Positions 32,944 through 48,278 of a stretch of 64,000 nt of DNA are shown one piece after another (the stretch's first letter is position 1; each line of letters begins with the position of its first letter). The stretch covers positions 332 through 64,331 of the forward strand of contig CAMEJM010000009.1 in the NCBI GenBank assembly GCA_945920215.1. Reading direction: 5' to 3'. The translations under genes were made by a program, and so were the position numbers. The DNA comes from an uncultured bacterium. Its GTDB lineage: Bacteria > Bacillota > Clostridia > Oscillospirales > CAG-272. Under the pieces are notes generated by a model, which was not told the DNA's origin, made no database searches, and worked only from the letters and a program-made list of their open reading frames with translations.

Positions 32944-33195
32944 TTACAGGGCGTCCAATGCGGGAAGCAGCTCCGCCGGGGTGACGCCGAGCGCAGCCGA
33001 GAGATAGACAAGCTCATAATCCGTGACCATGCGGGCGTTGTGCTCGATCTTGCTCACCATCTGCTGGTCGATCGAGATACCGTAGGTTTGCAGTTTTGCA
33101 GCCAATTGCCCCTGCGACATTCCGCGCGAGGTGCGCAGGTTTTTCAAAGCAGACGAGATGACGTTTTTGTGACCGTTATAATCTGTTTTTTTCAT
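32944..33195 (-). CDS. XRE-family helix-turn-helix transcriptional regulator
   Basis: 83 aa. LKNLRTSRGMSQGQLAAKLQTYGISIDQQMVSKIE. GGAGG RBS before the ATG at 33195. Confidence 0.8.
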   Translation of the reverse strand: MKKTDYNGHKNVISSALKNLRTSRGMSQGQLAAKLQTYGISIDQQMVSKIEHNARMVTDYELVYLSAALGVTPAELLPALDAL

Positions 33196-33270
33196 TGACG
33201 GTGCGAACCTCCTTATTTGGTATTTACGGATTCTTCCATTAAATTTTACCATATATTTGGTTTTTGTGTA

Positions 33271-33301
33271 CGCTATATTAGAGTAATAAGCGAATATAGC
33301 G
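33271..33301. promoter_or_regulatory. operator-like perfect 9-bp inverted repeat
   Basis: CGCTATATT-N13-AATATAGCG, in the AT-rich divergent region between the XRE gene and the structural operon. Confidence 0.45.
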
Positions 33302-33638
33302 TAAAACGGGACCGGATAAAAAACGGGGAGTGCGGCATGGAGGACAGACGAAAAGGAGCGGAGACGAAACAGGCGGGGCGGAGAGGGAGGAGGGCGCAGG
33401 GGGAACGGAGTGTGCAAAGGAGAGCGACTGGGTGCGAAAAGAGGGATTTGCAGGCGGGGAAAAATCGCATGGTTTCGCATCGTTTCGCTTGGTCAGCGGC
33501 GGGCTGCGGAGAGCCGGGCCAGGTCGGTCAGGGTGTTTTCACCGAGAGAAAAGCAGGCGCCAGAACAACGGCGAAACGCCTTGCATTTCAGGCAACGCTT
33601 TGTTTTTCGGGGCAGGGGCGGGACAAGTGCATATACGC

Positions 33639-33670
33639 GGCGGGCGGCAGCCCGCCTTATTTTGTTTTAC
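33639..33670 (+). terminator. intrinsic terminator inside the leader of the structural operon
   Basis: GGCGGGC-GGCA-GCCCGCC followed by TTATTTTGTTTT, 136 nt upstream of terS. Confidence 0.6.
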
Positions 33671-33805
33671 CCCCCGAAAAAGACCTTTTCGGTTCCGTGG
33701 CAAATGAGCCCGACGGCAGGCGCCGCCGCCTTAGAATGGAGATGCGGTGAAAGCGAGGGGCAACCCGAGCAGCCCCGATACAAGCGAAAGAGAAAGGAGA
33801 GACGA

Positions 33806-34126
33806 ATGGCGTACAGTCAATGCTTTGAGCGGCAGATGCTCCAATATTTTTCGGACGAGTCCACGCCGGAGTTCCCTACCTTTGCATCGTTTGCGATGAA
33901 GATCGGGGTGCCGATGAGGGAGCTGGAGGCTTGGCGGCGCGAGCAGTCGACTTTTGCCGCCGCGTGGGAGGAATGCCGGGAGAGGCAGAAATCCGCCCTG
34001 ATACGCGGCGCTTTGGCAAAACGGTATGACGCGAGCACCGCCAAATACCTTCTGGGAACCCTGTTCGGGCTTGGCGAGGAGCAGGCGGAACAGAGTTTCT
34101 CCGTCACGGTGGAGGTGGTCGAATGA
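33806..34126 (+). CDS. terminase small subunit
   Basis: 106 aa. HTH-like PTFASFAMKIGVPMRELEAWRRE...AAWEECRERQKSALI.GAL...Y....AKYLL, typical of terS. ATGA stop/start overlap with terL. AAAGGAGAG RBS. Confidence 0.65.
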   Translation: MAYSQCFERQMLQYFSDESTPEFPTFASFAMKIGVPMRELEAWRREQSTFAAAWEECRERQKSALIRGALAKRYDASTAKYLLGTLFGLGEEQAEQSFSVTVEVVE

Positions 34127-35490
34127 AGCTGCGCGTGACGCGCAAACAGAAGCAATTTCTGGACGCGAGCGCGACAGAAGTGCTGTTCGGCGGTGCTGCC
34201 GGGGGCGGCAAATCCTACGGACAGCTCATCGACGCCTTCCTCTTTGCCCTGCGCTATCCCGCTTCCAAGCAGCTGATCCTGCGGCGGACGTTTGCCGAGC
34301 TTGAAAAGTCCCTCATCCGCGTGAGTCTGACCCTGTTCCCGCGCACGGTATATACCTACCATGCGACGGCGCACACGGGCAGATTCCCGAACGGGAGCCT
34401 GATCGACTTCGGTTACTGCGCAAACGAAAACGACGTATTTCAGTATCAGAGCGCGGAATACGACGTGGTACGCTTTGACGAGCTGACGCATTTCACGGAA
34501 TTTCAGTACCTTTATCTGATTTCCCGTGTGCGCGGCGCGAACGGCTACCCCAAGCAAATCAAGTCCTCGACCAACCCCGGCGGCGTGGGCCACGGGTGGG
34601 TCAAGGCGCGGTTTGTCGACCCTGCGCCGCCCGAAACCGTCTTTGAAGCGGCGGACGGCAGCACAAGGGTTTTCATACCGTCAAAAATCGATGACAACCT
34701 GTTCCTGACGCGCGCCGACCCCGACTATCGTCGGCGGCTGCTGGCACTGCCGGAGAGGGAGCAGAGGGCGCTTCTGCGGGGAGACTGGAACATTTTTGAA
34801 GGACAGTACTTCACGGAGTTCTCTTATGAAACGCACACCTGCGACCCGCTTCCTCTGCCCGCCGAATGGCGGCGCTATCGCACCATTGACTACGGGCTTG
34901 ACCGCCTGGCTTGCCTGTGGGTGGCTGTGGATCACGAACGGAACGCGTATGTCTATCGGGAACTGTGTGAGTCGGATCTGATTGTTTCCCGTGCCGCGGA
35001 GAAAATTCTGGAAGCCACCCCGCCCGAGGAGCGCATTTATGCCACCCTTGCCCCGCCCGATCTCTGGGCGCGCAGTCAGGAGAGCGGGCGCAGCAAGGCG
35101 CTCCTGTTCGCGGAGAACGGACTTCATTTCACCAAGACCGCAAACGACAGGGAAACAGGCTGGCTTTCCGTCAAGGAGCTGTTGCGCCGCGACGGCGAAG
35201 GGAGGGCGCGTCTGCACATTTTCAGGACGTGTACGGAGCTGATCCGGTGTCTGCCGATGTTGCAGATCGACCCGTTGCGCCCGACCGACACGCTGACCGA
35301 GCCGCACAGCATCACCCACGCACCCGACGCCCTGCGCGGGTTCGCCATCTATTACAGCCGCCCCGCCGATCCGCCCTCGCCGGCGTCGGCGGTCTGGTCG
35401 CCGGACTTGATGGAGGACTACGAGCGGGCAGGCGAGGAGGAGAGGGAATATCTGCGCAGGCGGTGGGGAACTCCCTCTTTTCCCACATAG
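34123..35490 (+). CDS. terminase large subunit
   Basis: Walker A FGGAAGGGKSY, Walker B VVRFDELTHF, and a C-terminal RNaseH-like nuclease half (DYGL...). Confidence 0.9.
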   Translation: MKLRVTRKQKQFLDASATEVLFGGAAGGGKSYGQLIDAFLFALRYPASKQLILRRTFAELEKSLIRVSLTLFPRTVYTYHATAHTGRFPNGSLIDFGYCANENDVFQYQSAEYDVVRFDELTHFTEFQYLYLISRVRGANGYPKQIKSSTNPGGVGHGWVKARFVDPAPPETVFEAADGSTRVFIPSKIDDNLFLTRADPDYRRRLLALPEREQRALLRGDWNIFEGQYFTEFSYETHTCDPLPLPAEWRRYRTIDYGLDRLACLWVAVDHERNAYVYRELCESDLIVSRAAEKILEATPPEERIYATLAPPDLWARSQESGRSKALLFAENGLHFTKTANDRETGWLSVKELLRRDGEGRARLHIFRTCTELIRCLPMLQIDPLRPTDTLTEPHSITHAPDALRGFAIYYSRPADPPSPASAVWSPDLMEDYERAGEEEREYLRRRWGTPSFPT

Positions 35491-35502
35491 AAAGGACAGA
35501 AG

Positions 35503-37332
35503 ATGTATATTGACAAGCACACCGACCGCCTGAGGTTCTTTTCGGAGCTGTATGAGAGCGCCAAGAACAGCCGGAGCGACGTTGCGGCGAGCCTGACGCG
35601 CCACTGGAACCAATACTGCGGCAGCGACGAGATCGACGGCAGCGCCGAGAGGGCGCAGGCGGTGCGGAACATTACCTATGAAATCATCGAGAGTCAGATC
35701 AACTCCGATATCCCCGCCCCGAAGGTGGACGCCAAGCGGTACAGCGTGCGCCATGACCATAACGCCACGGCAATCGAACGCCTGTGCGCCAAGGTGCGGG
35801 ACGAGCTGCCCTTTGAGGAATTCAACGATATGGACGAGCGCTATACCTATATCTTCGGCGGCAGCGTCTGGCTGGTGGAATGGGACAGCGAGCGCGTGGA
35901 CGCGGGCGAGGTCGGCGGCGTGAAGGTCAGCTGCATCAGTCCCGAGGACTTCGTGCCGCAGCCGAACATCTACCGCGTGGAGGATATGGAGTACTGCTTC
36001 CTGCGGTTCATCACCACGCGCGACGAGCTGTGCAGGCGCTATCATATCACGGCGGAGCAGGCGCGGAAAGCCGCCACCGAACAGGAGGGGCTGTGCCGTG
36101 CGGACGACGACACCGTGACGCTGGTGGTTTGCTTCTGGCGGGACGAGGCGGGCGAGGTCTGCCGTTTCGCATGGTCGGGAGACGTGATTCTCTCGGACGT
36201 GGAGCGGTATTACAGGCGCAAGGACTGCTTCTGCAAAAAATGCGGGCAGCGTGTGAATCTCTGCCGGTGCGAAAAGCCGGAGCGGGAGCTAAGGGACCTT
36301 GACGGGGAAACTCTTACCCATCCCATTTTCCTCAGCGACAACAACTGCATTCCCGCCACCACCACCGTATTCGGCGGAGAGGGGGACGAGGGGTGCTACG
36401 AGGTGCCGACCAGACTGCCGTACTACCAACCGCATTCTTTTCCCATCGTGATCCGCCGCAACATCAGCGCCGACAAGCAGCTGCTGGGGCAGTCGGACTG
36501 TGAATTCCTGCGGCCGGAGCAGCAGCAGATCAACAAGGTGGAGAGCCGGATTATGCAGAAGTTGATGCGCTCCGGGATCACGCCTCTTGTGCCGGAGGAC
36601 GCCTCCGTCACGCTCAACAACGCGATTTTCGGACAGGTCATCCGCCTCAGACCCGGAGAGAGCGCCGCCAATTACGGCACCGTGGATACCACCCCCGACA
36701 TCGCGCAGGACATCGCGCAGGCGGAGCGACTGTACGAACACGCCAAGCGCGTCATCGGCATTTCCGACGCGTATCAGGGGCTTGACACCACCCACAACGA
36801 GTCCGGTTACGCGCGACAGATCCGAATCCGCCAGGCGGCGGGGCGCTTGGAATCCAAGCGGCGCATGAAGTATACCGCCTATGCCGCCATCGACCGCCTG
36901 ATTTTCGAGCATTACCTCGCTTACGCGGACGAGCCGCGGGTGCTCAGTTACACCGACTGTTTCGGGGTCAAGCGCCAGTCCACCTTTAACCGATACGATT
37001 TTCTGGAGTACGACCCCGCGCGGGATCTGTATTACTATGACGACGGGTATCTCTTCTCGGTGGATCTGTCCGGCGGGCCGGAACAGCAAAGAGAGGAAAT
37101 GTGGGAGAAAAACCTTGAAAATCTGCAGGCGGGCACGCTCGGCGACCCTGCCGACTACGCAACGCTTCTGCGCTACTGGCAGAACCAGGAGCGCTCCCAC
37201 TATCCCTTTGCGAAAGAAAACGTCGCGTATTTCTTGGATCTGATACGCAGGAAAGGAGAGAGTGACGGTGAGTACAACGGGCAGTACAACGGTGAAGAAT
37301 CCGGAGATTGCGGAATACCTGAAACTGTATGA
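35503..37332 (+). CDS. portal protein (with a Cys-rich insertion)
   Basis: 609 aa, immediately after terL. The N-terminal motif ...AVRNITYEIIESQI.S.IP.PKV... resembles portal families. Insertion: CFCKKCGQRVNLCRC. Confidence 0.75.
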   Translation: MYIDKHTDRLRFFSELYESAKNSRSDVAASLTRHWNQYCGSDEIDGSAERAQAVRNITYEIIESQINSDIPAPKVDAKRYSVRHDHNATAIERLCAKVRDELPFEEFNDMDERYTYIFGGSVWLVEWDSERVDAGEVGGVKVSCISPEDFVPQPNIYRVEDMEYCFLRFITTRDELCRRYHITAEQARKAATEQEGLCRADDDTVTLVVCFWRDEAGEVCRFAWSGDVILSDVERYYRRKDCFCKKCGQRVNLCRCEKPERELRDLDGETLTHPIFLSDNNCIPATTTVFGGEGDEGCYEVPTRLPYYQPHSFPIVIRRNISADKQLLGQSDCEFLRPEQQQINKVESRIMQKLMRSGITPLVPEDASVTLNNAIFGQVIRLRPGESAANYGTVDTTPDIAQDIAQAERLYEHAKRVIGISDAYQGLDTTHNESGYARQIRIRQAAGRLESKRRMKYTAYAAIDRLIFEHYLAYADEPRVLSYTDCFGVKRQSTFNRYDFLEYDPARDLYYYDDGYLFSVDLSGGPEQQREEMWEKNLENLQAGTLGDPADYATLLRYWQNQERSHYPFAKENVAYFLDLIRRKGESDGEYNGQYNGEESGDCGIPETV

Positions 37333-37975
37333 AAAACTGCGCGGCGGCACCTCCGCCTCGTATGCGCGCTATCTCGCGCAAAGCAATGCCGACCCGGAGG
37401 TGGCGTATGCCAAGGCGGTGACGGCGGCGAAGAATACCTACGCGCGCTCTCTTTCGGAATACGGCGCCACCGCCGAGAAGCTCGCCCGCAAGGGCCTCGA
37501 TGACAGCGGATACAGCAAGCTTCTCGCCGAGGGCGTCCGCGACCGATACCAAAGCGCGCTGGAGCAAGCCGAACGACAGCGCACGCAGGACGTGCAACAG
37601 AATATCTCCGGCTACGCCGACTACCTGCTCAAAGAGGGAAAGACGGCAAAGAGCATGGTCGGAGAGTTGCAGAACAAGGGCGTGAGCGATTTTGACACCG
37701 CTTACGCATACGCGCTTACGTCGGGACTGGACAAGGACACCGCCACGCTGACCGCCACACTGGTGGGGCAGATGGCAAACAAAGCCGCCAGCACCACCGC
37801 CGTCAAGCAACGGGTGACGATTTTGCGCCGCCTTGTGGAGCTGAATCTGCCGCGGGACTCCGCGTACGCCTATGCATTGGCGTGCGGGGTGGGAGACGAG
37901 GTTGCCGGAGAACTGGCGGACGCCGCGACCCGCGCCGTGCAGGAGCAGAATCAGAATCATCATATAGCCTACTGA
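37262..37975 (+). CDS. phage-island protein, helical, unknown function
   Basis: 237 aa. GTG start at 37262 or 37268 after AAGGAGAG. It overlaps the portal 3' end by about 65-71 nt. Confidence 0.45.
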   Translation: MTVSTTGSTTVKNPEIAEYLKLYEKLRGGTSASYARYLAQSNADPEVAYAKAVTAAKNTYARSLSEYGATAEKLARKGLDDSGYSKLLAEGVRDRYQSALEQAERQRTQDVQQNISGYADYLLKEGKTAKSMVGELQNKGVSDFDTAYAYALTSGLDKDTATLTATLVGQMANKAASTTAVKQRVTILRRLVELNLPRDSAYAYALACGVGDEVAGELADAATRAVQEQNQNHHIAY

Positions 37976-37993
37976 TCAAAAAAGGAGAACACC

Positions 37994-38125
37994 ATGAAAA
38001 ACAAAATGAAAAAGCAGAACCCCTATGCAACCAATCACGGCGGCAAGATCGAGGCGCCGCACCGTGAGAAGAACGAGCCGAAAGGCAGCCGCAAGAGCGG
38101 CGAAGACCTGCGCGTGAAGCGCTGA
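37994..38125 (+). CDS. small basic protein (43 aa)
   Basis: Below the ORF-track size cut-off. AAAGGAGAA RBS 5 nt before the ATG. MKNKMKKQNPYATNHGGKIEAPHREKNEPKGSRKSGEDLRVKR. Confidence 0.35.
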   Translation: MKNKMKKQNPYATNHGGKIEAPHREKNEPKGSRKSGEDLRVKR

Positions 38126-38136
38126 GGAGGAGCGGC

Positions 38137-38670
38137 ATGGAAGAGACGATCATCACACAGACCCCGCCCGCGGAGCAAAGCGCTCCGATACAGACGATGG
38201 GGGAGATACAAAATCCTGTCGGCGAGACGCAAAATGCTGCGCCCGCAGAGCAGGCTTCCCTGACCCAAGAGGTGCCGGAGTCGGCTACGGGAGACGGCGA
38301 AGCAATTCCGGAGACGGCGCCGGCGGTGGATTACGCCCGCCTGGCGGCGGAGGACCTTGCCGAAATTCAGCGGATCGCGCCGGCGCTCGCCGGGTTCGGA
38401 CACCTGTCGGAGCTGCCGAACGCGGCGCGTTACGGCGCCCTGCGGGACGCGGGTCTGAGCGTGGAGGAGGCTTTTTGGGCTGCCTGCCACGGCGTGGCGC
38501 TGCGCTCCGGGGGTTATGACAACCGCTCCCATTTGCAAACCGCCGTACCGCGCCCCGCAAGCGGCAACCCCGCCATGATGAGCGCTTCCGAGATGGCGCA
38601 GGCAAAGGAGCTGTTTTCGGATATGAGCGAAAGCGACATTCAGCGCCTGTACGCCAAATGCCGCGCCTGA
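38137..38670 (+). CDS. putative capsid scaffolding protein
   Basis: 177 aa, acidic and disordered at the N-terminus, helical at the C-terminus. The call is by position upstream of the capsid gene. GGAGGAG RBS. Confidence 0.45.
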   Translation: MEETIITQTPPAEQSAPIQTMGEIQNPVGETQNAAPAEQASLTQEVPESATGDGEAIPETAPAVDYARLAAEDLAEIQRIAPALAGFGHLSELPNAARYGALRDAGLSVEEAFWAACHGVALRSGGYDNRSHLQTAVPRPASGNPAMMSASEMAQAKELFSDMSESDIQRLYAKCRA

Positions 38671-38703
38671 CTATCAAATCATCACAATACAAAGGAGAAC
38701 GAT

Positions 38704-39105
38704 ATGTTTCGTTTAGTGAAAATTCTCAACGGTCGCACCAACCAGGCGGAGCCTGTAAAACTTGCGACCACCGCCTCTGAAAGCTATTCCGTCGGCGAGG
38801 CGCTCGTCCTCTCCGGCGGCGCGCTGACCAAGTGCGGCGCCACGGAAAAGCCGACCTATATTGCCGCCGCGGATTATACCGCCCCCGCCGCCGAACAGGC
38901 ACCCCTGACCGCTTATCCCGTCTCGGACGGCATGATTTTCGAGTGCCCCGTGGGCGCGGCACCCACGAGCCTGCATATCGGCGATAAGGTGACCCTGGCA
39001 ACGGACGGGCAGGGCGTAACCGCCACCACGGCAAGCGGTGTGGCAACGGTATGGGATCTTGCGGGCGCCGCCGCGTCCGGCGACAAAATCCTGGTAACAT
39101 TCTGA
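38704..39105 (+). CDS. putative head decoration-like protein
   Basis: 133 aa, beta-rich, Ala/Gly/Thr-rich. It sits directly before the capsid gene, as gpD does in lambda. The call is by position only. Confidence 0.35.
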   Translation: MFRLVKILNGRTNQAEPVKLATTASESYSVGEALVLSGGALTKCGATEKPTYIAAADYTAPAAEQAPLTAYPVSDGMIFECPVGAAPTSLHIGDKVTLATDGQGVTATTASGVATVWDLAGAAASGDKILVTF

Positions 39106-39121
39106 AAAGGAGAGATATGAC

Positions 39122-40189
39122 ATGGCAATTTTATTTTCCAAATCTTCGGGGGTGAACAACGCCCAGATCGGCAAGCTGGAAACCCCCATCAAAATGGTCA
39201 TCGAGCATGAGTCGGATTTGCAGACCAAGCAGGGCGGCATCCGCGACTGGCTGTTCAATGTGGAGAAGTCCAACAAGTTCGGCGAGACCATCGTCGGGCA
39301 GAACGAGTTTGACGTCTTTCAGGCGGCTGTGGAGGGCGCCGGCGCCGAAAACGACGATATGCAGGAGACCTACCGCAAGTTCATCGAGCACATTCAGTTC
39401 ATGAAGGAGTTTACCATCACCGCCGAGATGATGGAGGACGCAAATTACGGCGTGGCGGCGGACGCCAAACGCCGTGCGGAAAACTTCACCCGCGCGTACT
39501 ACAAGACCCAGCACAAGATCTGCGAGTACGCGCTTTCTCACGCAACCGCCAAGAGCGGCACCTTCGCCAAGGCAACCCTTGACCTGACGGCGCCCGACGG
39601 GCTGGCGCTCTTCTCCTCCTCTCACAAGTGGGGCGGCAAGAAGGCAAGCGGCACGCAGTCCAACTACTATTACGGCGATATCTTCAGCCACACCGACGCC
39701 TCCGACAACCGCGTTTCCTCCACCTCCGTGTTTGAGGAAGCGCTGTCCAACCTTGCGGCGAAGATCCGCAATATGAAAGATGAAAACGGAGACGTTCTGG
39801 GCTATACCGCCGACACGCTGATCCTGCCCGGTAACCGCCCGGCGGCAGAGGCGATTGCCAAGAAAGTATGCGGCTCCGAGGGGGCGACGGGCAACGGCTA
39901 CAACGACATCAACCTGCACTTCGGCAACTGGAACATCATTGTGATGCCCAACTGGCAGACGGATGACGACCGCGTGATGATCATGTCCCGCGAGGCGAAC
40001 AAGAACCTGTGCGGCAATATGTTCTTCAACCGCGTTCCGCTGACCGTGAGCAGCTGGTGCGACCACCACACCGGCAACTATATCTGGAACGGCAGATGCC
40101 GCTTCGGCGTGGGCTTTGGCTCCTACAAGCATATCCTGCTGGCGGTTGACTCCGGCAGCGCGGTGAGCGGCGCCACCAAGCTTTCGTAA
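39122..40189 (+). CDS. major capsid protein (HK97-fold candidate)
   Basis: 355 aa. The position and size fit, and the ORF has strong codon bias and an RBS. No diagnostic motif could be verified without a profile search. Confidence 0.65.
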   Translation: MAILFSKSSGVNNAQIGKLETPIKMVIEHESDLQTKQGGIRDWLFNVEKSNKFGETIVGQNEFDVFQAAVEGAGAENDDMQETYRKFIEHIQFMKEFTITAEMMEDANYGVAADAKRRAENFTRAYYKTQHKICEYALSHATAKSGTFAKATLDLTAPDGLALFSSSHKWGGKKASGTQSNYYYGDIFSHTDASDNRVSSTSVFEEALSNLAAKIRNMKDENGDVLGYTADTLILPGNRPAAEAIAKKVCGSEGATGNGYNDINLHFGNWNIIVMPNWQTDDDRVMIMSREANKNLCGNMFFNRVPLTVSSWCDHHTGNYIWNGRCRFGVGFGSYKHILLAVDSGSAVSGATKLS

Positions 40190-40201
40190 AGGAGGCGGGC
40201 A

Positions 40202-40813
40202 ATGACCCTTGCGGAATGTAAAGCCGCGGCGGCAAGCCTTGCGTTTGCGGAGGACCTCTCGGACATTGACGAGAGCGCGGAAAATATGTTTTTCTCCTCT
40301 CTCAACCGCGCTCTGACGGTTGCCGATGGGGCGCGCCCGCGCAGAGCAAGCCTGACCCTTGACCACCGCTCCCCTTTCTCTTCGGGTGCGCAGGAGACGG
40401 AGGACGGCGCCTACATACTGTACGAGCTGACCGCCATGGCGCCCGACCTTGCCTGCCTGACCGCCCCGCCGGCGCTGTTTTCGGAGGAGGCGTACTACCC
40501 CTTGAGCGACGGCTATATGCTGGAGGACGGCGTGCGCTTATATCTGCTGCGCAGCCGCCCCGGCGTGTATCGGCTGGAATACAGGCGCCGCCCGCCCACT
40601 GTCTCCGCCGATACGCCGGAGGATACCGTGCTCTCCCTTGACGACGAGGTGTGCCAGCTGGCGGTCCTGCTTGTTGCGCATGACCTGCTCCTGGACGACG
40701 ACCCCGACAAGGCGCAGGTATATCTGACGTTGTTCCGGGAGAGGTACGCGCTGCTGCGCGGCGAGGCGCATACGCTGTCGCCTGCGCTCTATCGTTCGGT
40801 CAACGACTGGTAA
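40202..40813 (+). CDS. putative head completion / head-tail adaptor protein
   Basis: 203 aa. AAAGGAGG RBS. The call is by position after the capsid gene. Confidence 0.35.
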   Translation: MTLAECKAAAASLAFAEDLSDIDESAENMFFSSLNRALTVADGARPRRASLTLDHRSPFSSGAQETEDGAYILYELTAMAPDLACLTAPPALFSEEAYYPLSDGYMLEDGVRLYLLRSRPGVYRLEYRRRPPTVSADTPEDTVLSLDDEVCQLAVLLVAHDLLLDDDPDKAQVYLTLFRERYALLRGEAHTLSPALYRSVNDW

Positions 40814-40825
40814 AGGAGGAAAAAC

Positions 40826-43627
40826 ATGAAAGCAACGAGCACAGGACATTACCAGCGCCTGCTCGGAGATTTCGGCGGGCTGGACTGCACCTCCGACCCT
40901 GCGGGCGTGGCCTCCAACCGCTTTGTGCGGCTGGACAATCTGTGGCGGGATTACCGCGCGGGGGACGGCAACGCCATCGAAACCTTTCCCGGCTTCCGCC
41001 GCCTGAGGAAATACGAGGGGGCAGTCCACGGCATCTGGTGCTGGCGCACCTCCTCCGGGGAGTATCTCGTGATCCATGAGGGCACACGGCTGTGGGTACA
41101 GGACATGAGCGATACTAACCAAACCGTGCTCGCGTCGGACGGCGAGAGCGTCGGCGGTCATACCGTCTTTCTTGCCGACAGCACTTCGTGCGCCTTCGCG
41201 TGGGAGGACTCGCTGTATCTGCTGGACGGAGAATACTACTATGTTCTCAAGCAGACCGATACCGGCTTCACCATGAAGATCGTGGAGGACATTTACAACC
41301 CCGTGACCTATCTCGACGGGGAGCGGTACGAACAGCGAAATCTGCTGTCGGATTATTCCGTGGCACGGTATCACATCGGCGTCCCGACCTTTGACGGGTA
41401 CGCCACCCCGGTACTGACTTACAGCGTCGTCGATCCTGTCGCACACACCTGCGAGGTCACGGGCTTGGACCGGTCGTATACGGTGCCGAAAATTTACGTC
41501 CCCGGAGAGGTGAAGATCGGCGCCGAGACATACCGCGTGATACGGATCGCGTGGAAAGCGTTTTATCAGGACGAGGACCTGATCGCCCTGCACGTGGCGA
41601 ACGGCGTGGAGGAAGTCGGCGCTTCGGCGTGCGAGGGCTGCACCAACCTGCTGACCCTGACCCTGCCGGACAGCGTGCGGGTGGTCAGCAAAAGCGCTTT
41701 CCGCTACTGTCCTCTGCAAAAAACGGTACTGGGGGCTTCACTTGCGGAAATCGCGGAGAGCGCTTTCACAAGTTCTGCGGAAACAAACGTGGTCGTCTAT
41801 CACGGCGCGGCGGAAAACTATCAGGCAATTACGGTGGGAAGCGGCAACATCGGTCTGAGCGACGCCACCGTCCAATACGTGAATGTATATCCGGTGCAGA
41901 TTGCTTATCTGCGCCTGTACGAACCCGTTGCGGGTATTACCAGTATTAGCCTCGGAGGTGTGACCCTCCCGAGCAGCTGTTATACGTCGATCTTCAATGG
42001 GTATATCTGCGGCGTCATCATAGACGGCGGCGATACCTACAACCTGATGGGCGGCGTCATTGACATTACGTGCAGACTGGATAACAAGGCGTATCTGAAT
42101 GAACCGGGAAAAGAAAAGTTCGTCATGGCGCGCTGGGGGTATATTCTGGTCGCCATTGCGCACTGCACGTCTGCGTGCGTATGGGACGACAGGGTTTTCT
42201 TCTATGGAAACCCCGATCTGCCGAACATGATTTTTTATGCCTCGCGCGACCTGACGGGGCATATCAATCCGTGCTACGTCGGCGAGATGAACTATTTTCA
42301 GAACGGCGGCGGCAGGGTGCCGAACAGCGCTCTGCTCCCGACCTCCTCTTACCTTGCCGTCATCAAGGCGGAGCCTTGCGGGAACGGCACCGTTTCGTTT
42401 TACTGCGGACAGGATACGGGGGAGCACCTGCTGCCGCGCATCTATGTGCGGACGGACGCCGTGGCAGGGCGCGGCTGTCGGGGCAGAGCGCTGGATTTCA
42501 TGGACGACCCCGTGTATCTTTCCGACGAGGGGTTGGAGGCGCTCGGCAGAGAGGCGCTGAACCGTGAGCGCAGCCTGATGCACCGCTCCACCCTCATCGA
42601 CGCGGCTCTGGCGGCGAAAGACCCAGCCGCCGCGATGTGCGCCGAGTGGGAGGGGTATCTGGTACTGCTGTACCCCGACGGAGAAGCCTACCTTGCCGAC
42701 GGGCGCCGCACCTGTACGACGGCGCGCGGGGCAGAGTACGAATGGTATCATCTCTGCGGCGTCGGCTCCTATACGGACGACCTGACCGTTTACCGTTATG
42801 CGGGCGGTTATCCCGCCGACGCGCCGACGGTCATTACCTACGGAGGCGAGGAGGTGACGCTGCTGCTCCACCCGGATGCGGACGCCTTGCCCTTCGGGGT
42901 GGATTACGACGGTTACCCCGCCGTATACGAACGGATTTTATCCGGGGTTGACGCGGAGGGAAACGACGTGTATTTCACGTTGGAAGAAGAAGGGGGAGAA
43001 AGCCGCTTCTATCTGCTGAGCAAAACCGAGGAGCGCACGGGAGGGACGTTTTCCTCTCCCACCGCGCTGCTGTCTGCAGGGGGAAAACTGTTTTTCGGGT
43101 GCGCGGACGGCAGTCTGTGCGTGGTCAATACCGACAGGCGCGGCGTGATGAACGCGGCGCAAAGCGCGGACTACTCTGCGGCGGAATACGCCGCGTTCTG
43201 GGGGCAGACCATCAACCCGGAATGGTACACCTACGCGGGGCACCGCATTGTCAGCGGGTTTATCACCTCCATGGATGACTGCGGCGTGCCCAACTACACC
43301 AAGAAAACCGTGCGCTGCTCCACCGTCGCGGAAATGAAAGCGGGGCTGGGGTGCGACATTGTGTTTGAGGTGCGCATCAACCACGGCACCTACCCGATGG
43401 AATGCGACAGCGTGTCTTTCGGCGGCGGCGGAATGGATTTCACCGCGTTGGATTACGGGCGGTTTGTATTTGGCACCGCCGAGACCAACACCGCGGTGTT
43501 GCAGGAAAAGACCAAGCGCTGGGTGCGCAAGCAGTATCGCGTCTGGTCGGACGGCTTCACCCGCCCGTTCGGAATGTACCGCCTTGCCTACACATGGAAG
43601 GTGGAGGGCAAGGTCAAAAACAAATAA
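40826..43627 (+). CDS. large virion structural protein (beta-propeller-like) with an embedded BspA-type LRR cassette
   Basis: 933 aa. aa ~200-350 read as a complete BspA-type cassette (...CEVTGLDRSYTVPKIYVPGEV.IG...Y.V..I...AF...GVEEVGASACEGCTNLLTLTLPDSVRVVSKSAFRYC...VVVYHGAAENYQAITVGSGN). The remainder is rich in Y/W/G beta-strand repeats. Confidence 0.65.
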   Translation: MKATSTGHYQRLLGDFGGLDCTSDPAGVASNRFVRLDNLWRDYRAGDGNAIETFPGFRRLRKYEGAVHGIWCWRTSSGEYLVIHEGTRLWVQDMSDTNQTVLASDGESVGGHTVFLADSTSCAFAWEDSLYLLDGEYYYVLKQTDTGFTMKIVEDIYNPVTYLDGERYEQRNLLSDYSVARYHIGVPTFDGYATPVLTYSVVDPVAHTCEVTGLDRSYTVPKIYVPGEVKIGAETYRVIRIAWKAFYQDEDLIALHVANGVEEVGASACEGCTNLLTLTLPDSVRVVSKSAFRYCPLQKTVLGASLAEIAESAFTSSAETNVVVYHGAAENYQAITVGSGNIGLSDATVQYVNVYPVQIAYLRLYEPVAGITSISLGGVTLPSSCYTSIFNGYICGVIIDGGDTYNLMGGVIDITCRLDNKAYLNEPGKEKFVMARWGYILVAIAHCTSACVWDDRVFFYGNPDLPNMIFYASRDLTGHINPCYVGEMNYFQNGGGRVPNSALLPTSSYLAVIKAEPCGNGTVSFYCGQDTGEHLLPRIYVRTDAVAGRGCRGRALDFMDDPVYLSDEGLEALGREALNRERSLMHRSTLIDAALAAKDPAAAMCAEWEGYLVLLYPDGEAYLADGRRTCTTARGAEYEWYHLCGVGSYTDDLTVYRYAGGYPADAPTVITYGGEEVTLLLHPDADALPFGVDYDGYPAVYERILSGVDAEGNDVYFTLEEEGGESRFYLLSKTEERTGGTFSSPTALLSAGGKLFFGCADGSLCVVNTDRRGVMNAAQSADYSAAEYAAFWGQTINPEWYTYAGHRIVSGFITSMDDCGVPNYTKKTVRCSTVAEMKAGLGCDIVFEVRINHGTYPMECDSVSFGGGGMDFTALDYGRFVFGTAETNTAVLQEKTKRWVRKQYRVWSDGFTRPFGMYRLAYTWKVEGKVKNK

Positions 43628-43688
43628 GAGGGTTTTCCCCCGCCGCGGTTTGCCCGCGGCGGTTGCGGGGACCCGGAAAGGAACATAC

Positions 43689-44393
43689 ATGAAGAAAATT
43701 TGGTTATGGGTTGCGGCGCTCGCGCTGTGCTGTTGTCTGAGTGCGGGGCTGCGCGTATCGGCGGAAAGCGCCGACGGCGCGGTGCCGGAAGATCCGGCTG
43801 CTGCCGGTGCGGAAGCAGCCGCGGAGACAACCGGACAGCCCGATAGCGAGCCGGACGGCACCTCGGCGCAGAACACCGCCGACCGCAGCTTCGGCGCGGT
43901 ATTGCTTTCGGTTCTGGACGCGCACGCGTCGGAGCTTCTGTCGGCGCTGACCCTGGTTGCTTCTCTGGTTCTGGCGCACGCCTATAAAAAGGGGCTTGTC
44001 CCTACGCTTTGGGGCGGGCTGAACAGCATTGCCCGCACCGTGCAGGACACGGGAGAACAGACGCGCCTGCTCGCCGAGACGGCGCAGAAGTCGATCGACG
44101 GCGTCAGTCAATCCGCGGCGCCTCTTCTTGAACAGGTGGAAGTGCTGTGCGGCACGGCGGAGGAAACAGCGCGGCAGAACGCGCAGCTGAAGAGTCTGAT
44201 TGCACAGACCGAGACCGACCGCGCGCGCATGGTGACGTTTATGCAGGGGCTTGCCGGGATGTTGTACGAGGTCTTCTCGGTTGCCAACCTGCCGCAGTAC
44301 GCGAAGGAGCAGCTGGGCAGAACCTATACCGCCATCATGGCGCAGGCGGAGGGTGACAGGCATGAAAACACAGACTGCGATCCGACTGTATAA
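43689..44393 (+). CDS. secreted/membrane protein with coiled coil (ejection-protein- or holin-associated candidate)
   Basis: Signal peptide MKKIWLWVAALALCCCLSAGLRVSA, an acidic linker, one TM (LLSALTLVASLVLAHAY), then coiled coil. Confidence 0.5.
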   Translation: MKKIWLWVAALALCCCLSAGLRVSAESADGAVPEDPAAAGAEAAAETTGQPDSEPDGTSAQNTADRSFGAVLLSVLDAHASELLSALTLVASLVLAHAYKKGLVPTLWGGLNSIARTVQDTGEQTRLLAETAQKSIDGVSQSAAPLLEQVEVLCGTAEETARQNAQLKSLIAQTETDRARMVTFMQGLAGMLYEVFSVANLPQYAKEQLGRTYTAIMAQAEGDRHENTDCDPTV

Positions 44394-44751
44394 GATAATC
44401 GGACTGCTGCTTTGCACGGTGCCCGCGGCGGTGACGACGCTTTTGCATTTTCCGCTTTGGCTCAGTCGTGAGGACAGCGGATTCTCGGTGCTTTCGATAT
44501 TGGTACTGTCGCTGTGCGCCATCCCCGCGCGGAGAATGCTGCGGGATTTTTTCCGCAATCCGTCGGCGTGGAAAATGTGGCTTGTCCTTTGGATTCTGTT
44601 TACCGTGACCGACAATCTCATCGACGGACTGCGGGCGGTTGCCTGCGTGGCGTGCCCCGCCAGCGCGCTCGGCGCACTGTTCTTTTGGCTGGCGAAACGG
44701 CAGGAGAAAAAGCTGTCGGAGGGAGAGAGACATGACGGAACAGAGAGATGA
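44362..44751 (+). CDS. small 3-4 TM membrane protein
   Basis: 129 aa. It overlaps both neighbouring genes. Confidence 0.5.
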   Translation: MKTQTAIRLYKIIGLLLCTVPAAVTTLLHFPLWLSREDSGFSVLSILVLSLCAIPARRMLRDFFRNPSAWKMWLVLWILFTVTDNLIDGLRAVACVACPASALGALFFWLAKRQEKKLSEGERHDGTER

Positions 44752-45616
44752 CGGGGGTGTGTTTCCCATGCCGCTCGACTTGCGGATGCGAGCGCCGAGC
44801 AGGCGCTATATGGGGCTTTGGGTCGGCTTTGTCACCGTAGCGGTCGCGGCGGCTGCGCTCTTCTGCGAGATGCACATGACGGCAGTCCCCGTGGAGCAGA
44901 CCTTCATGACCGCTGCGGTGATGATCCTGTGCTGTTTTATCATGTATACGTCGATGTTTGACGCGGGACACCAAAGGTCCTGCACCGCGGCGGCATACCG
45001 GGAGAAAGCCGCACAGTATGCGGCAGTCAGGGAAAGGGTGCGGAGCGAGGTCGGTACCGAGGGGCTGGACGGCTTTTGCACCCGCTATATCGCGGAGGAG
45101 CTGCGTGAGGCGCGCGAGAGGATTCTGACGGCGGCGGGCGAAAGTCTTGACGGCTTTGAAGCGTGGCGGGAGGCGGAGAAGCCCCGCGCATATTTGCGTG
45201 CCCTGCCGCGCGAAAAAAGGAGAGCGCTGCGCCGCGCGGCGCGCTTGTCCGCTCTGCGCCTTTCGGCGGGAATGCTGATGAGCGAGGGAGGAAGCGCGCA
45301 CCGACAGGCAATCCCCTCCGTGCGCGGCGCCAGAGTCAAAAGGACGGTGACCGCCTTGCTGCCCACAACAATCGGTTCCCTGATCACGGTTGCCGTGACG
45401 CTGGAGGGAACCGCCATGACCCCCGCCGCCATGATTGCGGGTCTTTTGCGCCTGTTCACCGTGGTGTGGACGGGGGTGCGCGGATATTCCGCAGGCTCCT
45501 ACGCGGTGAGCGAGGACGACGCGGCGGCGCTGGACTGCAAAATCACATTGCTGGGGATGTACTGCGCCGCGGAAGAAAACGGCGCGGCGCCCGAAAAACA
45601 AGGCGCCACGCAATAG
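44732..45616 (+). CDS. membrane protein (2+2 TM with a basic helical loop)
   Basis: 294 aa. GGAGGGAGAG RBS before the ATG at 44732. Confidence 0.5.
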   Translation: MTEQRDDGGVFPMPLDLRMRAPSRRYMGLWVGFVTVAVAAAALFCEMHMTAVPVEQTFMTAAVMILCCFIMYTSMFDAGHQRSCTAAAYREKAAQYAAVRERVRSEVGTEGLDGFCTRYIAEELREARERILTAAGESLDGFEAWREAEKPRAYLRALPREKRRALRRAARLSALRLSAGMLMSEGGSAHRQAIPSVRGARVKRTVTALLPTTIGSLITVAVTLEGTAMTPAAMIAGLLRLFTVVWTGVRGYSAGSYAVSEDDAAALDCKITLLGMYCAAEENGAAPEKQGATQ

Positions 45617-45642
45617 AGTCCGAACGGCAATGCCGGAGCGAT

Positions 45643-45684
45643 GAAAAAGAGGTGATACGCTTGTCGTATCACCTCGATTTTTTA
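45643..45684. terminator. bidirectional rho-independent terminator
   Basis: AAAAAGAGGTGATACG-CTTGT-CGTATCACCTCGATTTTTT, between the convergent structural and early operons. Confidence 0.85.
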
Positions 45685-45694
45685 TGGGAGCCGC

Positions 45695-46000
45695 TCAGGA
45701 GTTCAGAAGTCCCAAATTGCGCGCAATGGTATATTTTGCGCGCCGTTTGTAGCGCTTGTAGGTCGCCGGAGACAGCTCATACAGCGGGCTGTATGTAGCG
45801 CCGCGGCGGCAGGCGATATCCTGCCGCATGGCAACGCGCGCAGGGCGGTCAAGGGCGGGGAGGGAATCATCCAGAGCGGCGTCAATGGTGCCGTTGAGAT
45901 AAGAGTAAAAGTTTCTTGTATCATCGTCCGCGCCGCGGCTTGTGAGAACGCGCTGACGGCGTTCATAGTCCTCGCAGTAGGCGATGACAATGTGTTCCAC
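45695..46000 (-). CDS. small HTH protein, candidate late-gene activator (sigma region-4/RinA-like)
   Basis: 101 aa. C-terminus LSPATYKRYKRRAKYTIARNLGLL resembles a region-4-type HTH. The family assignment is tentative. Confidence 0.4.
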   Translation of the reverse strand: MEHIVIAYCEDYERRQRVLTSRGADDDTRNFYSYLNGTIDAALDDSLPALDRPARVAMRQDIACRRGATYSPLYELSPATYKRYKRRAKYTIARNLGLLNS

Positions 46001-46017
46001 ACTGCGCTCCAGGGCGC

Positions 46018-46320
46018 CTAACCGTCCTCCGCTGCGTCCTCTCCTTCGCGCGGGGTGCGCAGGGGCCAGCGCTTGGCGGCGTTTGCCCGATTGACTTCGG
46101 AGCGGTGGCGGGAGCGATCCAACTCGCTTCCCATGCGCGCCGCGATGAAAGCAAACGCCATCTGTGCGGGCGGGGTCAGGGTGGAGGACGTATCCGCGCC
46201 GTCCGCATAATCGAAAAGAGACATCAGGAGCTGCCCGCGGTCGCTGTCGGAGAGTAGTGCCAGCGAATCGCGGTAAGAGGAGTACAGGCGAAAGCAGCTT
46301 ACATCCTTTGCATGAGACAT
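46018..46320 (-). CDS. small phage-type protein resembling the N-terminal domain of replisome-organiser proteins (DUF4373/DUF6291-like)
   Basis: FRLYSSYRDSLALLSDSDRGQLLMSLFDYADG...AFAFI pattern. Only 100 aa, so no helicase-loader or origin-binding portion is present. Confidence 0.4.
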   Translation of the reverse strand: MSHAKDVSCFRLYSSYRDSLALLSDSDRGQLLMSLFDYADGADTSSTLTPPAQMAFAFIAARMGSELDRSRHRSEVNRANAAKRWPLRTPREGEDAAEDG

Positions 46321-46601
46321 AGGGTTTCGCTCATCTCCTTCTGAAGGGCACGCAGCTCTTCTCCGTACCCGTCGATCTCGCCGAGAGCGGCTTTCGCTTC
46401 TCCCAAAAGGACCTCCAGCAGCTCCTCCGTGCGGCAATCCTCTGTGTGATGGTTGAGCGCGTCTCTTGCGGCTTCCAATGCCGCATAACGCTCATGTGCG
46501 GCTGTAATACCACGCCCCACGCGGTTGATTTCGGTGCGGATGTCGCAGGGGTCTCGCCAAATAATCGGCTCATCCGCGCCTTTTTCGACATAATGCAACA
46601 T
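46299..46601 (-). CDS. hypothetical early protein
   Basis: 100 aa, helical. It is the first gene of the leftward operon opposite the CI-like repressor. Confidence 0.4.
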   Translation of the reverse strand: MLHYVEKGADEPIIWRDPCDIRTEINRVGRGITAAHERYAALEAARDALNHHTEDCRTEELLEVLLGEAKAALGEIDGYGEELRALQKEMSETLCLMQRM

Positions 46602-46822
46602 TTTTTGTTCCTTTCAAATTGTATAATCAAAATGCACAATCCGCATATTGGTGGAGAACCCAACAGGCAGATTAGGGTTTACACACAGCAGGGGGCGATG
46701 CCGTGCGACAGCCCGGTAACGGCGAGTGTCGGGCGCCTGACCGGTATATTTATGGTATCACTATATGAAGTAACCTGTCAAGTTACTTTATCGCTAAAAA
46801 ATGAAGAAATCTGTTGAAATAA

Positions 46823-46851
46823 TTGACAAAGTGTAGTAGAATATACATAAT
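46823..46851 (+). promoter_or_regulatory. sigma-A promoter of the CI-like repressor (TTGACA-N17-CATAAT)
   Basis: Hexamers at 46823-46828 and 46846-46851, in a 260-bp AT-rich divergent region. Confidence 0.6.
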
Positions 46852-46863
46852 GTAACTTTTAAG

Positions 46864-47439
46864 GTGACTGAAATGATATTTGGTGAGAATCTAAAACGAC
46901 TGCGAAAAGACAAAGGGATGACGCAGGAAACCCTGGCGGAACTGGTCGGAACGAAAAAACAGACCATACAGCGATATGAATGCGGCGTGATTCAGTGCCC
47001 GCCGTACGACAGAATTGAGGCGCTCGCCATGGCGCTTGCCACCACGCCCGCGAACCTGATGGGGTGGGAGGAGGACGCGCCTCTCGCCGCGCCTGTGACG
47101 GAGCAGGGGGGCGTGCTGGAGGAGCCGAGCGCGGTGTGCAAGGAAGAAAAAGAATCCGTTATCGTTGCGCCGGACGATACCATGCTGTATGCGCGTATCG
47201 GCGTGGGCGACCGCGTTTTGTTCCGCGAGGACGGAATTGTCAAACACGGCGGACTCGGAGTGGTGGAACTGGACGGCGAGCGCATGATACGCCGCGTATG
47301 GTTTGACCGGCAGCATGATGCCGTTCTGCTGACCGCGGAGGGGGCGCAGCTTTGGGAGCCGCTGATCCTCAACGGAGAGGAGAGGGAGAGGCTGCACATT
47401 CTCGGCGCCGTTGCTTCGGTGATCATTTCTTTCCTTTGA
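46864..47439 (+). CDS. CI/LexA-like repressor: XRE HTH plus S24-peptidase-like domain with substituted catalytic dyad
   Basis: N-terminus NLKRLRKDKGMTQETLAELVGTKKQTIQRYE. In the C-terminal S24-like fold, DDTM replaces the usual GDSM and MIRRV replaces the usual VKRL (my alignment by eye). Confidence 0.75.
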   Translation: MTEMIFGENLKRLRKDKGMTQETLAELVGTKKQTIQRYECGVIQCPPYDRIEALAMALATTPANLMGWEEDAPLAAPVTEQGGVLEEPSAVCKEEKESVIVAPDDTMLYARIGVGDRVLFREDGIVKHGGLGVVELDGERMIRRVWFDRQHDAVLLTAEGAQLWEPLILNGEERERLHILGAVASVIISFL

Positions 47440-48191: not shown

Positions 48192-48278
48192 GCGGGTGTG
48201 GCGGAATTGGCAGACGCGTAAGATTCAGGTTCTTATGGTCGCAAGGCTGTGCAGGTTCAAGTCCTGTCACCCGCACCA
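48192..48278 (+). tRNA. tRNA-Leu (anticodon CAG), CCA encoded
   Basis: GCGGGTG acceptor pairs with CACCCGC. Anticodon stem TAAGA/TCTTA with loop TTCAGGT. Long variable arm GGTCGCAAGGCTGT. T-arm GCAGG TTCAAGT CCTGT. Ends in ACCA. Confidence 0.9.

Follow-up and report, generated by a model that had tools for sequence, protein, structure and literature searches.

Gene transfer agents (GTAs) have been characterized in a handful of lineages only, mostly within the Alphaproteobacteria. The described system closest to the one discussed here is FpGTA, a podovirus-like GTA of Faecalibacterium prausnitzii (Borodovich et al., Nat Commun 2026, PMC12946183). It is encoded by a 10.5-kb operon comprising terS, terL, portal, a Prp-like gene, a major capsid protein (MCP) gene of the "N4-gp56 family" and hypothetical genes, and by a second operon of 5.5 kb, 125 kb away, that contains fibre, receptor-binding protein (RBP), holin and endolysin genes; the particles, about 40 nm in size, contain 8.4-8.9 kb of host DNA (PMC12946183). 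The same 2026 long-read viromics reported abundant GTA-like packaging of host DNA in gut Clostridia, among them Oscillospiraceae, Christensenellaceae and Ruminococcus callidus, with a gene cluster identified for Faecalibacterium only (PMC12946183), and a 2026 preprint describes further candidate clusters in Coprocola and Butyricicoccaceae (bioRxiv 10.64898/2026.07.08.737213). Here we examine a 64,000-nucleotide stretch of DNA with a guanine-plus-cytosine (GC) content of 58-61% (the window; positions 332 to 64,331 of contig CAMEJM010000009.1, assembly GCA_945920215.1) from an uncultured gut clostridium of the CAG-272 group of Oscillospirales, which contains a packaging and capsid island at 32944-47439. 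The core of this island is one tightly packed rightward operon of about 12 kb (33.8-45.6 kb), and we consider it very probable that it represents a vertically inherited, selected and non-mobile cluster of phage-derived particle genes.

The cluster is widespread. Its MCP has 1783 database relatives, the best 120 clusters of which are all 77-100% identical, and a scan of one genome per GTDB species recovered a close relative in 140 genomes; the 80 of these that were listed are nearly all metagenome-assembled genomes (MAGs) of Clostridia, Eubacteriales or Oscillospiraceae from human, ruminant and other guts. We know of no cultured carrier. In 80 loci fetched from relatives with a close MCP (designated by L numbers where they must be told apart), the gene order is conserved: terS, terL, portal, two scaffold-like genes, a 133-aa gene, the MCP gene, adaptor, nozzle, between one and five genes that vary and are fibre-like or have no assigned function, and three membrane proteins. 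This comparison places the start of the conserved unit at the terS promoter region, at about 33.7 kb. The variable set is missing in the window and in its closest relatives, and the accessory genes of the other relatives (clusters c2, c16, c19, c14, c27 and c59) have no Pfam match save DUF6273 in one. MCP identity is 73-90% across the 80 loci and fragments from IMG/VR, and identity to the window is 73-86% for the MCP, 64-81% for terL, 50-74% for portal and 22-71% for the other core proteins. The recurrent flank clusters that we inspected are housekeeping genes and depend on the lineage. An ABC-F ATPase and an amino-acid ABC transporter lie upstream in a large share of the loci; other contexts include RecA, MiaA and OGG, or GroEL with SpoIIAA/AB and a sigma factor, and downstream a DinG-like helicase, CysK or a major facilitator superfamily (MFS) transporter. 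A PHROG scan of 118 non-redundant open reading frames (ORFs) from the flanks returned host-like families and regulators, with no integrase among the top 25 of 91 families.

An initial annotation of the window had left four options for the island: a decayed prophage, a domesticated GTA-like element, a satellite of the type of phage-inducible chromosomal islands (PICIs), or a minimal podovirus-like module. It had also suggested comparative genomics as a way to tell domestication from mobility or decay, and that comparison finds the operon conserved in the 80 loci, with housekeeping genes in the recurrent flanks inspected. The genes are intact: wherever a contig covers the gene, a single uninterrupted match is obtained for terL (59/59 loci), portal (58/58) and MCP (79/79), and the nozzle is uninterrupted in 64 loci and split or partial in 7 more, mostly around its insertion domain, with no frameshift seen in any locus. 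Every core gene shows a ratio of nonsynonymous to synonymous divergence (dN/dS) of 0.02-0.45 over 14 species pairs, with values of 0.02-0.14 for the MCP, 0.04-0.13 for terL and 0.13-0.44 for a 177-aa scaffold candidate. Synonymous divergence (dS) in the core is roughly equal to that of the flanking host genes within the same species pair, as in L037/L040 (core 0.12-0.28, ABC-F 0.16, permease 0.10) and L043/L045 (core 0.25-0.64, ABC-F 0.44, MFS gene 0.34). Among the 22 species in which ABC-F lies directly upstream, the divergence of portal, MCP and nozzle follows that of ABC-F (Mantel r of 0.91, 0.75 and 0.86, respectively, with 0 of 2000 permutations as high), and the mean divergence of the MCP is 19%, against 31% for the housekeeping ABC-F.

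Base composition tells a similar story. In the 29 loci for which both flanks are available (core of 11.6-16.2 kb), the GC content of the core tracks that of the flanks over a range of 41-67% (r=0.93), with a core mean 2.3 points higher over hosts of 41-62% GC. The description of the island's composition as host-like hence stands in that its GC follows the host, but needs qualifying in that the island is slightly above the remaining window (60.1% vs 57.6%). Intactness, GC, dN/dS, dS and co-divergence together exclude simple decay and argue against recent horizontal spread: the cluster has long been at the same chromosomal position, evolving with its neighbours. Of the four options, the decayed prophage is thereby contradicted, and domestication gains from vertical inheritance and purifying selection in many species.

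Profile searches with Pfam, PHROGs and NCBIfam over all ORFs at 29.7-50.8 kb detected no recombinase or integrase, no polymerase, primase or helicase, and no endolysin, tail tube or tape measure, in agreement with what had been read from the sequence by eye; the profile searches that the initial annotation had called for thus revealed no hidden integrase, replication or lysis gene. Without an integrase, replication genes or a recognizable endolysin, the element would be unable to excise, copy itself or spread as a virus. The absence of att-like direct repeats is likewise borne out, the 43 short direct-repeat families found being at about chance level; the sole pair that brackets the island (32847 and 48145) is 23 nt long and 83% identical (blastn-short E=0.9), and has no counterpart in L001, L006 or L088. 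The left flank consists of housekeeping genes (PNPase, S15, a MiaB-like gene, DnaJ, DUF5685 and a DEDDh exonuclease), as does the right (a CarD-like gene, tRNA-Leu(CAG), EamA, RNHCP, AdhE and hydrogenases), and no larger prophage extends past the boundaries of the island. A structural and packaging cluster without integration, excision or replication genes, vertically inherited and under purifying selection, shows two of the traits that mark a GTA in the broad sense.

We note that a tRNA-Leu(CAG) gene lies 3' of the cluster in four lineages, at 48192-48278 in the window, 19425-19511 in L001, 19462-19548 in L006 and 17190-17276 in L088; in L088 it is located about 150 nt past the last operon gene, with no regulators between. 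This tRNA may mark an ancestral site; the element, however, lies on its 5' side. It is also the only match of an Rfam search of the whole window at the gathering threshold, which detected no leader RNA family.

The assignment of the packaging and head genes rests on profiles and on synteny. Strong ribosome-binding sites (RBSs) precede nearly all genes of the island, as noted in the initial annotation, whose outline of a rightward operon running from the terminase through portal, head and adaptor genes to a 933-aa protein and three membrane proteins agrees with the profile searches. The small terminase subunit (terS; 33806-34126, + strand, 106 aa) matches PF16677 GP3_package (7e-6) and the terminase family phrog_3064 (1e-10), is present at 27-51% identity in most related loci whose contig covers the region, and retains, as judged by eye, an N-terminal segment resembling a helix-turn-helix (HTH). 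The large subunit (terL; 34123-35490, +, 455 aa) matches Terminase_6N (8e-11) and phrog_979 (6e-48) and carries the Walker A motif GGAAGGGKS that had been pointed out previously. The portal protein (35503-37332, +, 609 aa) matches phrog_156 (7e-35), with weak matches to SU10_portal and P22_portal. It is followed by a conserved helical protein of 227 aa, scaffold-like by position (37292-37975, +; syntenic cluster u237, 41 loci), and by an acidic 177-aa protein with a low-complexity N-terminus, a scaffold candidate that is syntenic in 61 loci (38137-38670, +); neither product has a match in Pfam, PHROGs or NCBIfam, and a permissive Pfam scan of the core proteins left without an assignment returned none.

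A head-associated protein of 133 aa, decoration-like by position (38704-39105, +; phrog_24113, 2e-25), is encoded directly 5' of the MCP in 56 loci and also in the distant relative L095. The MCP itself (39122-40189, +, 355 aa) matches the major head protein family phrog_371 (5e-8) and, weakly, PF25209 Phage_capsid_4. Among 74 diverse proteins of the MCP family, 40 match the NCBIfam protease/MCP-fusion model NF045541; for the MCP of the window, no NCBIfam model is matched at E<=0.1, and searches of the PDB with the MCP and portal sequences yielded nothing useful. The head-to-tail adaptor (40202-40813, +, 203 aa) matches PF24175 SU10_adaptor over residues 1-188 (7e-5), a family that is also an (unmarked) match in the relative L097.

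Downstream of the adaptor lies the gene for the 933-aa protein (40826-43627, +), the identity of which comes from its predicted structure. Its AlphaFold2 model (35 homologues) has a predicted local distance difference test (pLDDT) score of 85 and a predicted template modelling (pTM) score of 0.79, and its top Foldseek matches in the PDB are nozzle and hub proteins of short-tailed phages, cyanophage A4 (1e-19) and Carin-1 among them, with further matches to those of T7 (gp12), E1004, P-SCSP1u, LME-1, Kp9, SU10 and P22 (gp10); E-values range from 1e-19 to 1e-9 against A4, T7 gp12, SU10 and P22 gp10. As modelled, the protein is by fold a tail nozzle or hub of the T7/P22/SU10 type. A leucine-rich repeat (LRR) domain of the BspA type is inserted in it at about aa 200-440 (LRR_5, 6e-11 at aa 241-319). 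The LRR region of the window nozzle cannot be aligned in L009, L026, L034 and L058, as expected for a receptor-binding part, which is what the insertion likely is. Portal, adaptor and nozzle are encoded in the order of a podovirus short-tail module and make up a complete minimal podovirus tail. The element is hence not tailless, but merely without a long tail, and the fold of the nozzle bears out the earlier suggestion of a minimal podovirus-like module in P22 order, with adaptor and then hub.

Three membrane proteins close the operon. The first (43689-44393, +, 234 aa; cluster c8, 52 loci) shows a Sec-type signal peptide, an acidic linker and a coiled coil by hydropathy and sequence, with a weak DUF3450 match. 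The second (44362-44751, +, 129 aa; cluster c10, 49 loci) has three to four transmembrane helices and a charged C-terminal tail, and would be holin-like in shape only, as it has no match to Pfam or PHROG profiles. The third (44732-45616, +, 294 aa; 54 loci), with two N-terminal and one or two C-terminal transmembrane helices, is the last gene of the conserved operon and is followed by a bidirectional terminator at 45649-45675. These proteins may act as ejection proteins or instead form a release module; the latter reading draws on the position of their genes, which is where relatives carry an endolysin, on the one signal peptide and on the one holin-shaped protein.

A putative promoter at 33700-33740 (+), preceded by a terminator-like hairpin at 33639-33656, consists of GAGCCCGAC located 25 nt upstream of the -10 element TAGAAT (33732-33737). 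The motif GGAA-N8-TACTTACA-N17-TGnTATAAT occurs 5' of terS in 28 of 53 related loci (among L012-L079), as against about 2 in shuffled sequences, and GAGCCCGAC occupies the position of the conserved TACTTACA/TACCCAAA box (the window variant was matched by eye, at the same spacing); other loci have the variants GTACCCAAAA and GAGCCCGAC, again at that spacing. The -35 region is unusual and highly conserved, which hints at a dedicated activator or sigma factor. We also note that the 5' end of the leader, as given by the predicted start of transcription, can pair with bases immediately preceding an A-rich RBS (CGAAAGGAG), as in L015, L016, L019, L035, L037, L053, L057 and L070. The paired sequences vary by locus (GCAAGG/CCTTGC, GCGAAC/GTTCGC, GTCGGG/CCCGAC and others) and enclose an interior of 20 to more than 200 nt, an arrangement that resembles a 5'-terminal stem stabilizing the mRNA.

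Beyond the conserved operon, the window carries a regulatory region that is restricted to its own sublineage. An opposing leftward operon of three genes of about 100 aa had been described, and is present. Its first gene (46299-46601, -, 100 aa; dN/dS 0.17) has a product with no profile match and occurs in L001, L006 and L081, as does the second, which encodes a 100-aa DUF6291 protein (46018-46320, -; PF19808, 3e-14). The third (45695-46000, -) encodes an all-helical protein of 101 aa that is sublineage-specific (dN/dS 0.08), has 28 homologues, 59-98% identical, among 5.8 billion proteins, and is almost invariant in its C-terminal half; for several of these homologues the length of the longest contig equals one listed for an MCP or nozzle homologue, which suggests that they lie on the same contigs. 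It is a candidate regulator, a role that we offer as a guess. Identification as a sigma region-4 protein or a RinA-like activator was considered and is unsupported: the AlphaFold2 model has a pLDDT of 90, yet gives no significant fold match, with best hits at E=1 in the PDB and E=0.14 in BFVD (a "transcriptional regulator").

Between this operon and a rightward gene for a CI-like repressor (46873-47439, +; HTH_3 and Peptidase_S24 in Pfam) lies a 270-bp switch region (46602-46872) with divergent sigma-70-like promoters, in which a palindrome, AGTAAC..GTTACT (46765-46791), overlaps the -35 element of the leftward promoter and would serve as an operator. The CI-like gene and the three leftward genes, all under purifying selection, are common to the window and to L001, L006 and L081. 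In an alignment of the orthologues with LexA, the S24 catalytic dyad is lost in all four (Ser to Thr or Ala, Lys to Arg; in the window, Ser to Thr and Lys to Arg), and the homologue in L056 retains GDSM...K. With the dyad lost, the repressor is predicted not to cleave itself, so that the switch would no longer be coupled to the SOS response. The initial annotation had placed repressor genes at both ends of the island. The CI-like gene is indeed conserved with the element, in this sublineage only, but the XRE-type HTH gene at the other end (32944-33195, -; HTH_3, 3e-9) adjoins the element without being part of the conserved unit, for no XRE homologue stands beside the cluster in any of the 80 loci, the closest, L001 and L006, included.

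As to origin, cultured phages offer remote relatives at most (identity of up to 29% for the MCP and 32% for the portal), and IMG/VR contains only fragments of 4.5-17 kb of the conserved cluster, with no terminal repeats and no free form; one of them has host-like sequence at both ends, with tRNA-Leu downstream. Distant relatives of the MCP (28-30% identity) occur in phage-like contigs, one with YopX, pRha and HTH_17 and another that ends in a GH25 endolysin, and on this ground the ancestor is a short-tailed Firmicutes phage, and its modules for early functions, lysogeny and lysis are gone from the conserved clade. In L021 (365-8188), the second copy of the cluster in its MAG, the capsid genes are preceded by a giant ORF (2600-2800 aa) for which Pfam gives no match, and the same holds for L098 (L098/L099 1-8000), a relative with 53% MCP identity; terS, terL and portal were not detected at either locus.

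Elsewhere in the window, a gene at 11432-14458 (+) encodes a 1008-aa protein with tetratricopeptide repeats, a TIR_2 domain (aa 158-282) and three LRR_5 blocks of the BspA type, and could be a TIR-based defence or signalling gene; upstream of it are genes for an SPFH/Band-7 protein with multiple zinc ribbons and for a 235-aa protein (9395-10645 and 10659-11366). Two further ORFs, of 969 aa (877-3786, -) and 396 aa (19183-20373, -), have no Pfam match.

We suggest that the cluster would operate as follows. The host would switch on the single long operon via the conserved promoter; capsids would assemble, and the terminase would load them with chromosomal DNA by headful packaging. The particles would exit via lysis genes located elsewhere in the genome or via the three membrane proteins, and the short tail would deliver the DNA into related cells. 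In the sublineage of the window, the CI-like repressor devoid of self-cleavage residues would probably repress the divergent three-gene operon, which would in turn probably act upstream of particle production. That particles are made, which DNA they contain, how they are released and deliver it, and how the genes are regulated are points that we infer, and we lean, with some reserve, towards a full GTA-like mechanism. A bolder proposal, which we put forward tentatively and hold to be possible rather than probable, is that the cluster accounts for some of the GTA-like packaging of short host DNA fragments reported for Oscillospiraceae, Christensenellaceae and Ruminococcus-like bacteria of the gut. 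It would then be an ancient podovirus-type GTA, domesticated independently of FpGTA and conserved in well over a hundred species of uncultured Clostridia, with a dedicated, conserved promoter and 5' leader, of which one sublineage has come under an SOS-uncoupled CI switch.

Several observations weigh against an inherited GTA-like cluster. Chromosomal context depends on the lineage, with at least eight contexts, and in L009, L011 and L014, where the host genes RecA, MiaA and OGG lie upstream of the capsid genes, the order is circularly permuted, terS and terL being found past the last membrane-protein gene; one MAG, JAZRQS01, carries two copies of the cluster (L008 and L021). Some loci may hence go back to independent insertions of a related phage, and, as the flank check covered the top 25 of 91 families, an integrase that is rare among the relatives may have escaped it. 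Neither a lysis gene nor a second phage-like locus was found in the 64-kb window, nor was a second operon of the baseplate, fibre, RBP, holin and endolysin type. Finally, the HTH-like segment of terS and its match to P22 gp3 imply that packaging may start at a pac site, and not at random.

This last point is at the heart of an alternative that we deem unlikely, yet worth spelling out, namely that the cluster is a fixed platform for lateral transduction, in which the terminase would use a pac site inside the cluster and package in one direction, by headful, the cluster and then the downstream chromosome. In addition to a terS of the P22 gp3 type with an HTH-like N-terminal segment, the impossibility of excision fits this model, since pac-initiated packaging must then occur in place, and the core, at 11.6-16 kb, could fit one or two headfuls. 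No pac site was identified, however, and the downstream genes vary by lineage, so that there is no conserved specific cargo; moreover, the FpGTA precedent gives fairly even genome coverage (PMC12946183). Another alternative concerns not the packaging but its use. Evidence of fixation and selection would be the same for a domesticated particle that serves another end, be it a PBSX-like killer without DNA delivery or a programmed release of DNA for biofilm or nutrients; PBSX packages host DNA and yet acts as a bacteriocin, a point raised for FpGTA as well (PMC12946183), and a nozzle insertion that cannot be aligned in several lineages, together with fibre-like genes that come and go, fits an arms race over targets. 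We find such a use improbable nonetheless, as killing by tailocins relies on contractile or long tails, and the strong purifying selection on terS, terL and portal indicates that DNA packaging is central to the function. To our knowledge, moreover, no podovirus-type killer particle has been described.

The two remaining alternatives would keep the element within the world of mobile phage elements. Were it a capsid-forming phage satellite or another mobile island, it would move between genomes and depend on a helper phage for integration, replication or lysis. The presence of packaging and capsid genes, the want of replication and lysis genes, the lineage-dependent contexts and the permuted order in one lineage are all in keeping with this, and a satellite nature has been considered for comparable clusters of gut MAGs (bioRxiv 10.64898/2026.07.08.737213). 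We nevertheless reject the satellite option, already raised in the initial annotation, and give it a rather small chance of being correct: there is no integrase, att repeat, primase or replication gene (DUF6291, the sole candidate, has no known replication role), the flanks are the same across many species with equal synonymous divergence inside and outside a cluster that co-diverges with its neighbours from a fixed position, its GC is fully ameliorated to the host, and it encodes an adaptor and nozzle of its own, which capsid-forming PICIs lack. Least of all do we credit a decaying cryptic prophage remnant or a functional minimal temperate podophage, either of which we regard as highly improbable. 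In their favour are the phage origin of the genes, the CI-like repressor and divergent early operon that stand at one end, and the tRNA-Leu nearby in four lineages. Decay, however, is ruled out by dN/dS well below 1 for all genes and by reading frames in which no frameshift was seen at any locus. An autonomous phage is ruled out as well, since genes for replication, integration and lysis are missing, there are no terminal repeats, and the phage and IMG/VR collections contain no free genome. An intact temperate prophage was considered separately and rejected, since integration, replication and lysis modules were not found and the flanks are housekeeping genes.

If the GTA-like reading is true, a second, unrelated GTA cluster would point to repeated domestication of short-tailed phages in gut Firmicutes, and domesticated particles would be a major means, maintained by the host, by which DNA is exchanged within the microbiome. 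The cluster is conserved in at least 140 species, and the divergence of its MCP is slower than that of a housekeeping gene. Markers for producers in metagenomes, viromes and proteomes would be at hand in the capsid protein, the nozzle and the promoter motif.

Among known systems, the capsid-forming PICIs resemble the cluster in being small islands that encode terS, terL, portal and capsid proteins themselves. They differ from it in that they possess integrase and alpA genes, att sites and a module for primase and replication, but no tail genes, and the cluster is the reverse on each count. With PBSX of Bacillus subtilis it shares a Gram-positive host that keeps a phage-derived element under a repressor, and PBSX also packages host DNA, but PBSX is a myovirus-like bacteriocin with its own lysis genes, and its genes are unrelated. 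The cluster also resembles the podovirus modules of T7, P22 and SU10, in which portal, SU10-type adaptor and a nozzle of the T7 gp12/P22 gp10 fold occur in the same order, and P22 in its gp3-like terS. Unlike these, the cluster is no virus genome and is without replication, lysis and early genes, its nozzle bears an LRR insertion, and, in place of recognizable internal core or ejection proteins, it has three membrane proteins, one of them with a Sec signal peptide.

Among GTAs, RcGTA of the Alphaproteobacteria offers a parallel in evolutionary pattern: it too is a cluster of head and tail genes, about 15 kb long, in which integrase, replication and lysis genes are absent. It is passed on vertically throughout a clade of order rank, under purifying selection, and its GC content is slightly above that of the host, an excess known for RcGTA-like alphaproteobacterial clusters (Kogay et al. 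2020, PMC7360931). RcGTA differs in being siphovirus-like, with a tail tube and tape measure and unrelated genes, and in its regulation by CtrA and GafA, for which no counterpart was identified in the present cluster. For both RcGTA and FpGTA, terS is reported to be without a DNA-binding domain, whereas the window terS retains its HTH-like segment.

With FpGTA the agreement extends to gene order, the two having been compared by published description only: a gut Clostridia host, a single operon of roughly 10-12 kb that starts with terS, terL and portal and continues with the MCP and conserved hypothetical genes, podovirus-like proteins, and an operon without integrase or replication genes, FpGTA being near-ubiquitous in its clade. 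The differences are nonetheless substantial. In FpGTA, a Prp-like gene separates the portal gene from that of the MCP, and baseplate, fibre, RBP, holin and endolysin genes form a second operon, whereas the present cluster has adaptor, nozzle and, in most lineages, fibre-like genes in one operon, with no lysis genes found; FpGTA is supported by experiment and the present cluster is known from its genes alone. The FpGTA MCP (RCH50849.1) belongs to the N4-gp56 family, the NCBIfam model of which is matched neither by the window MCP nor by any of the 74 members of its family, and look-ups of ten distant representatives of the MCP returned no Faecalibacterium entries and no capsid-family names. The two systems are thus set apart by matches to MCP models and not by direct alignment, and, because their capsid proteins are of different families, we posit that the cluster is probably a new GTA-like member, domesticated independently of FpGTA from a phage with a short tail.

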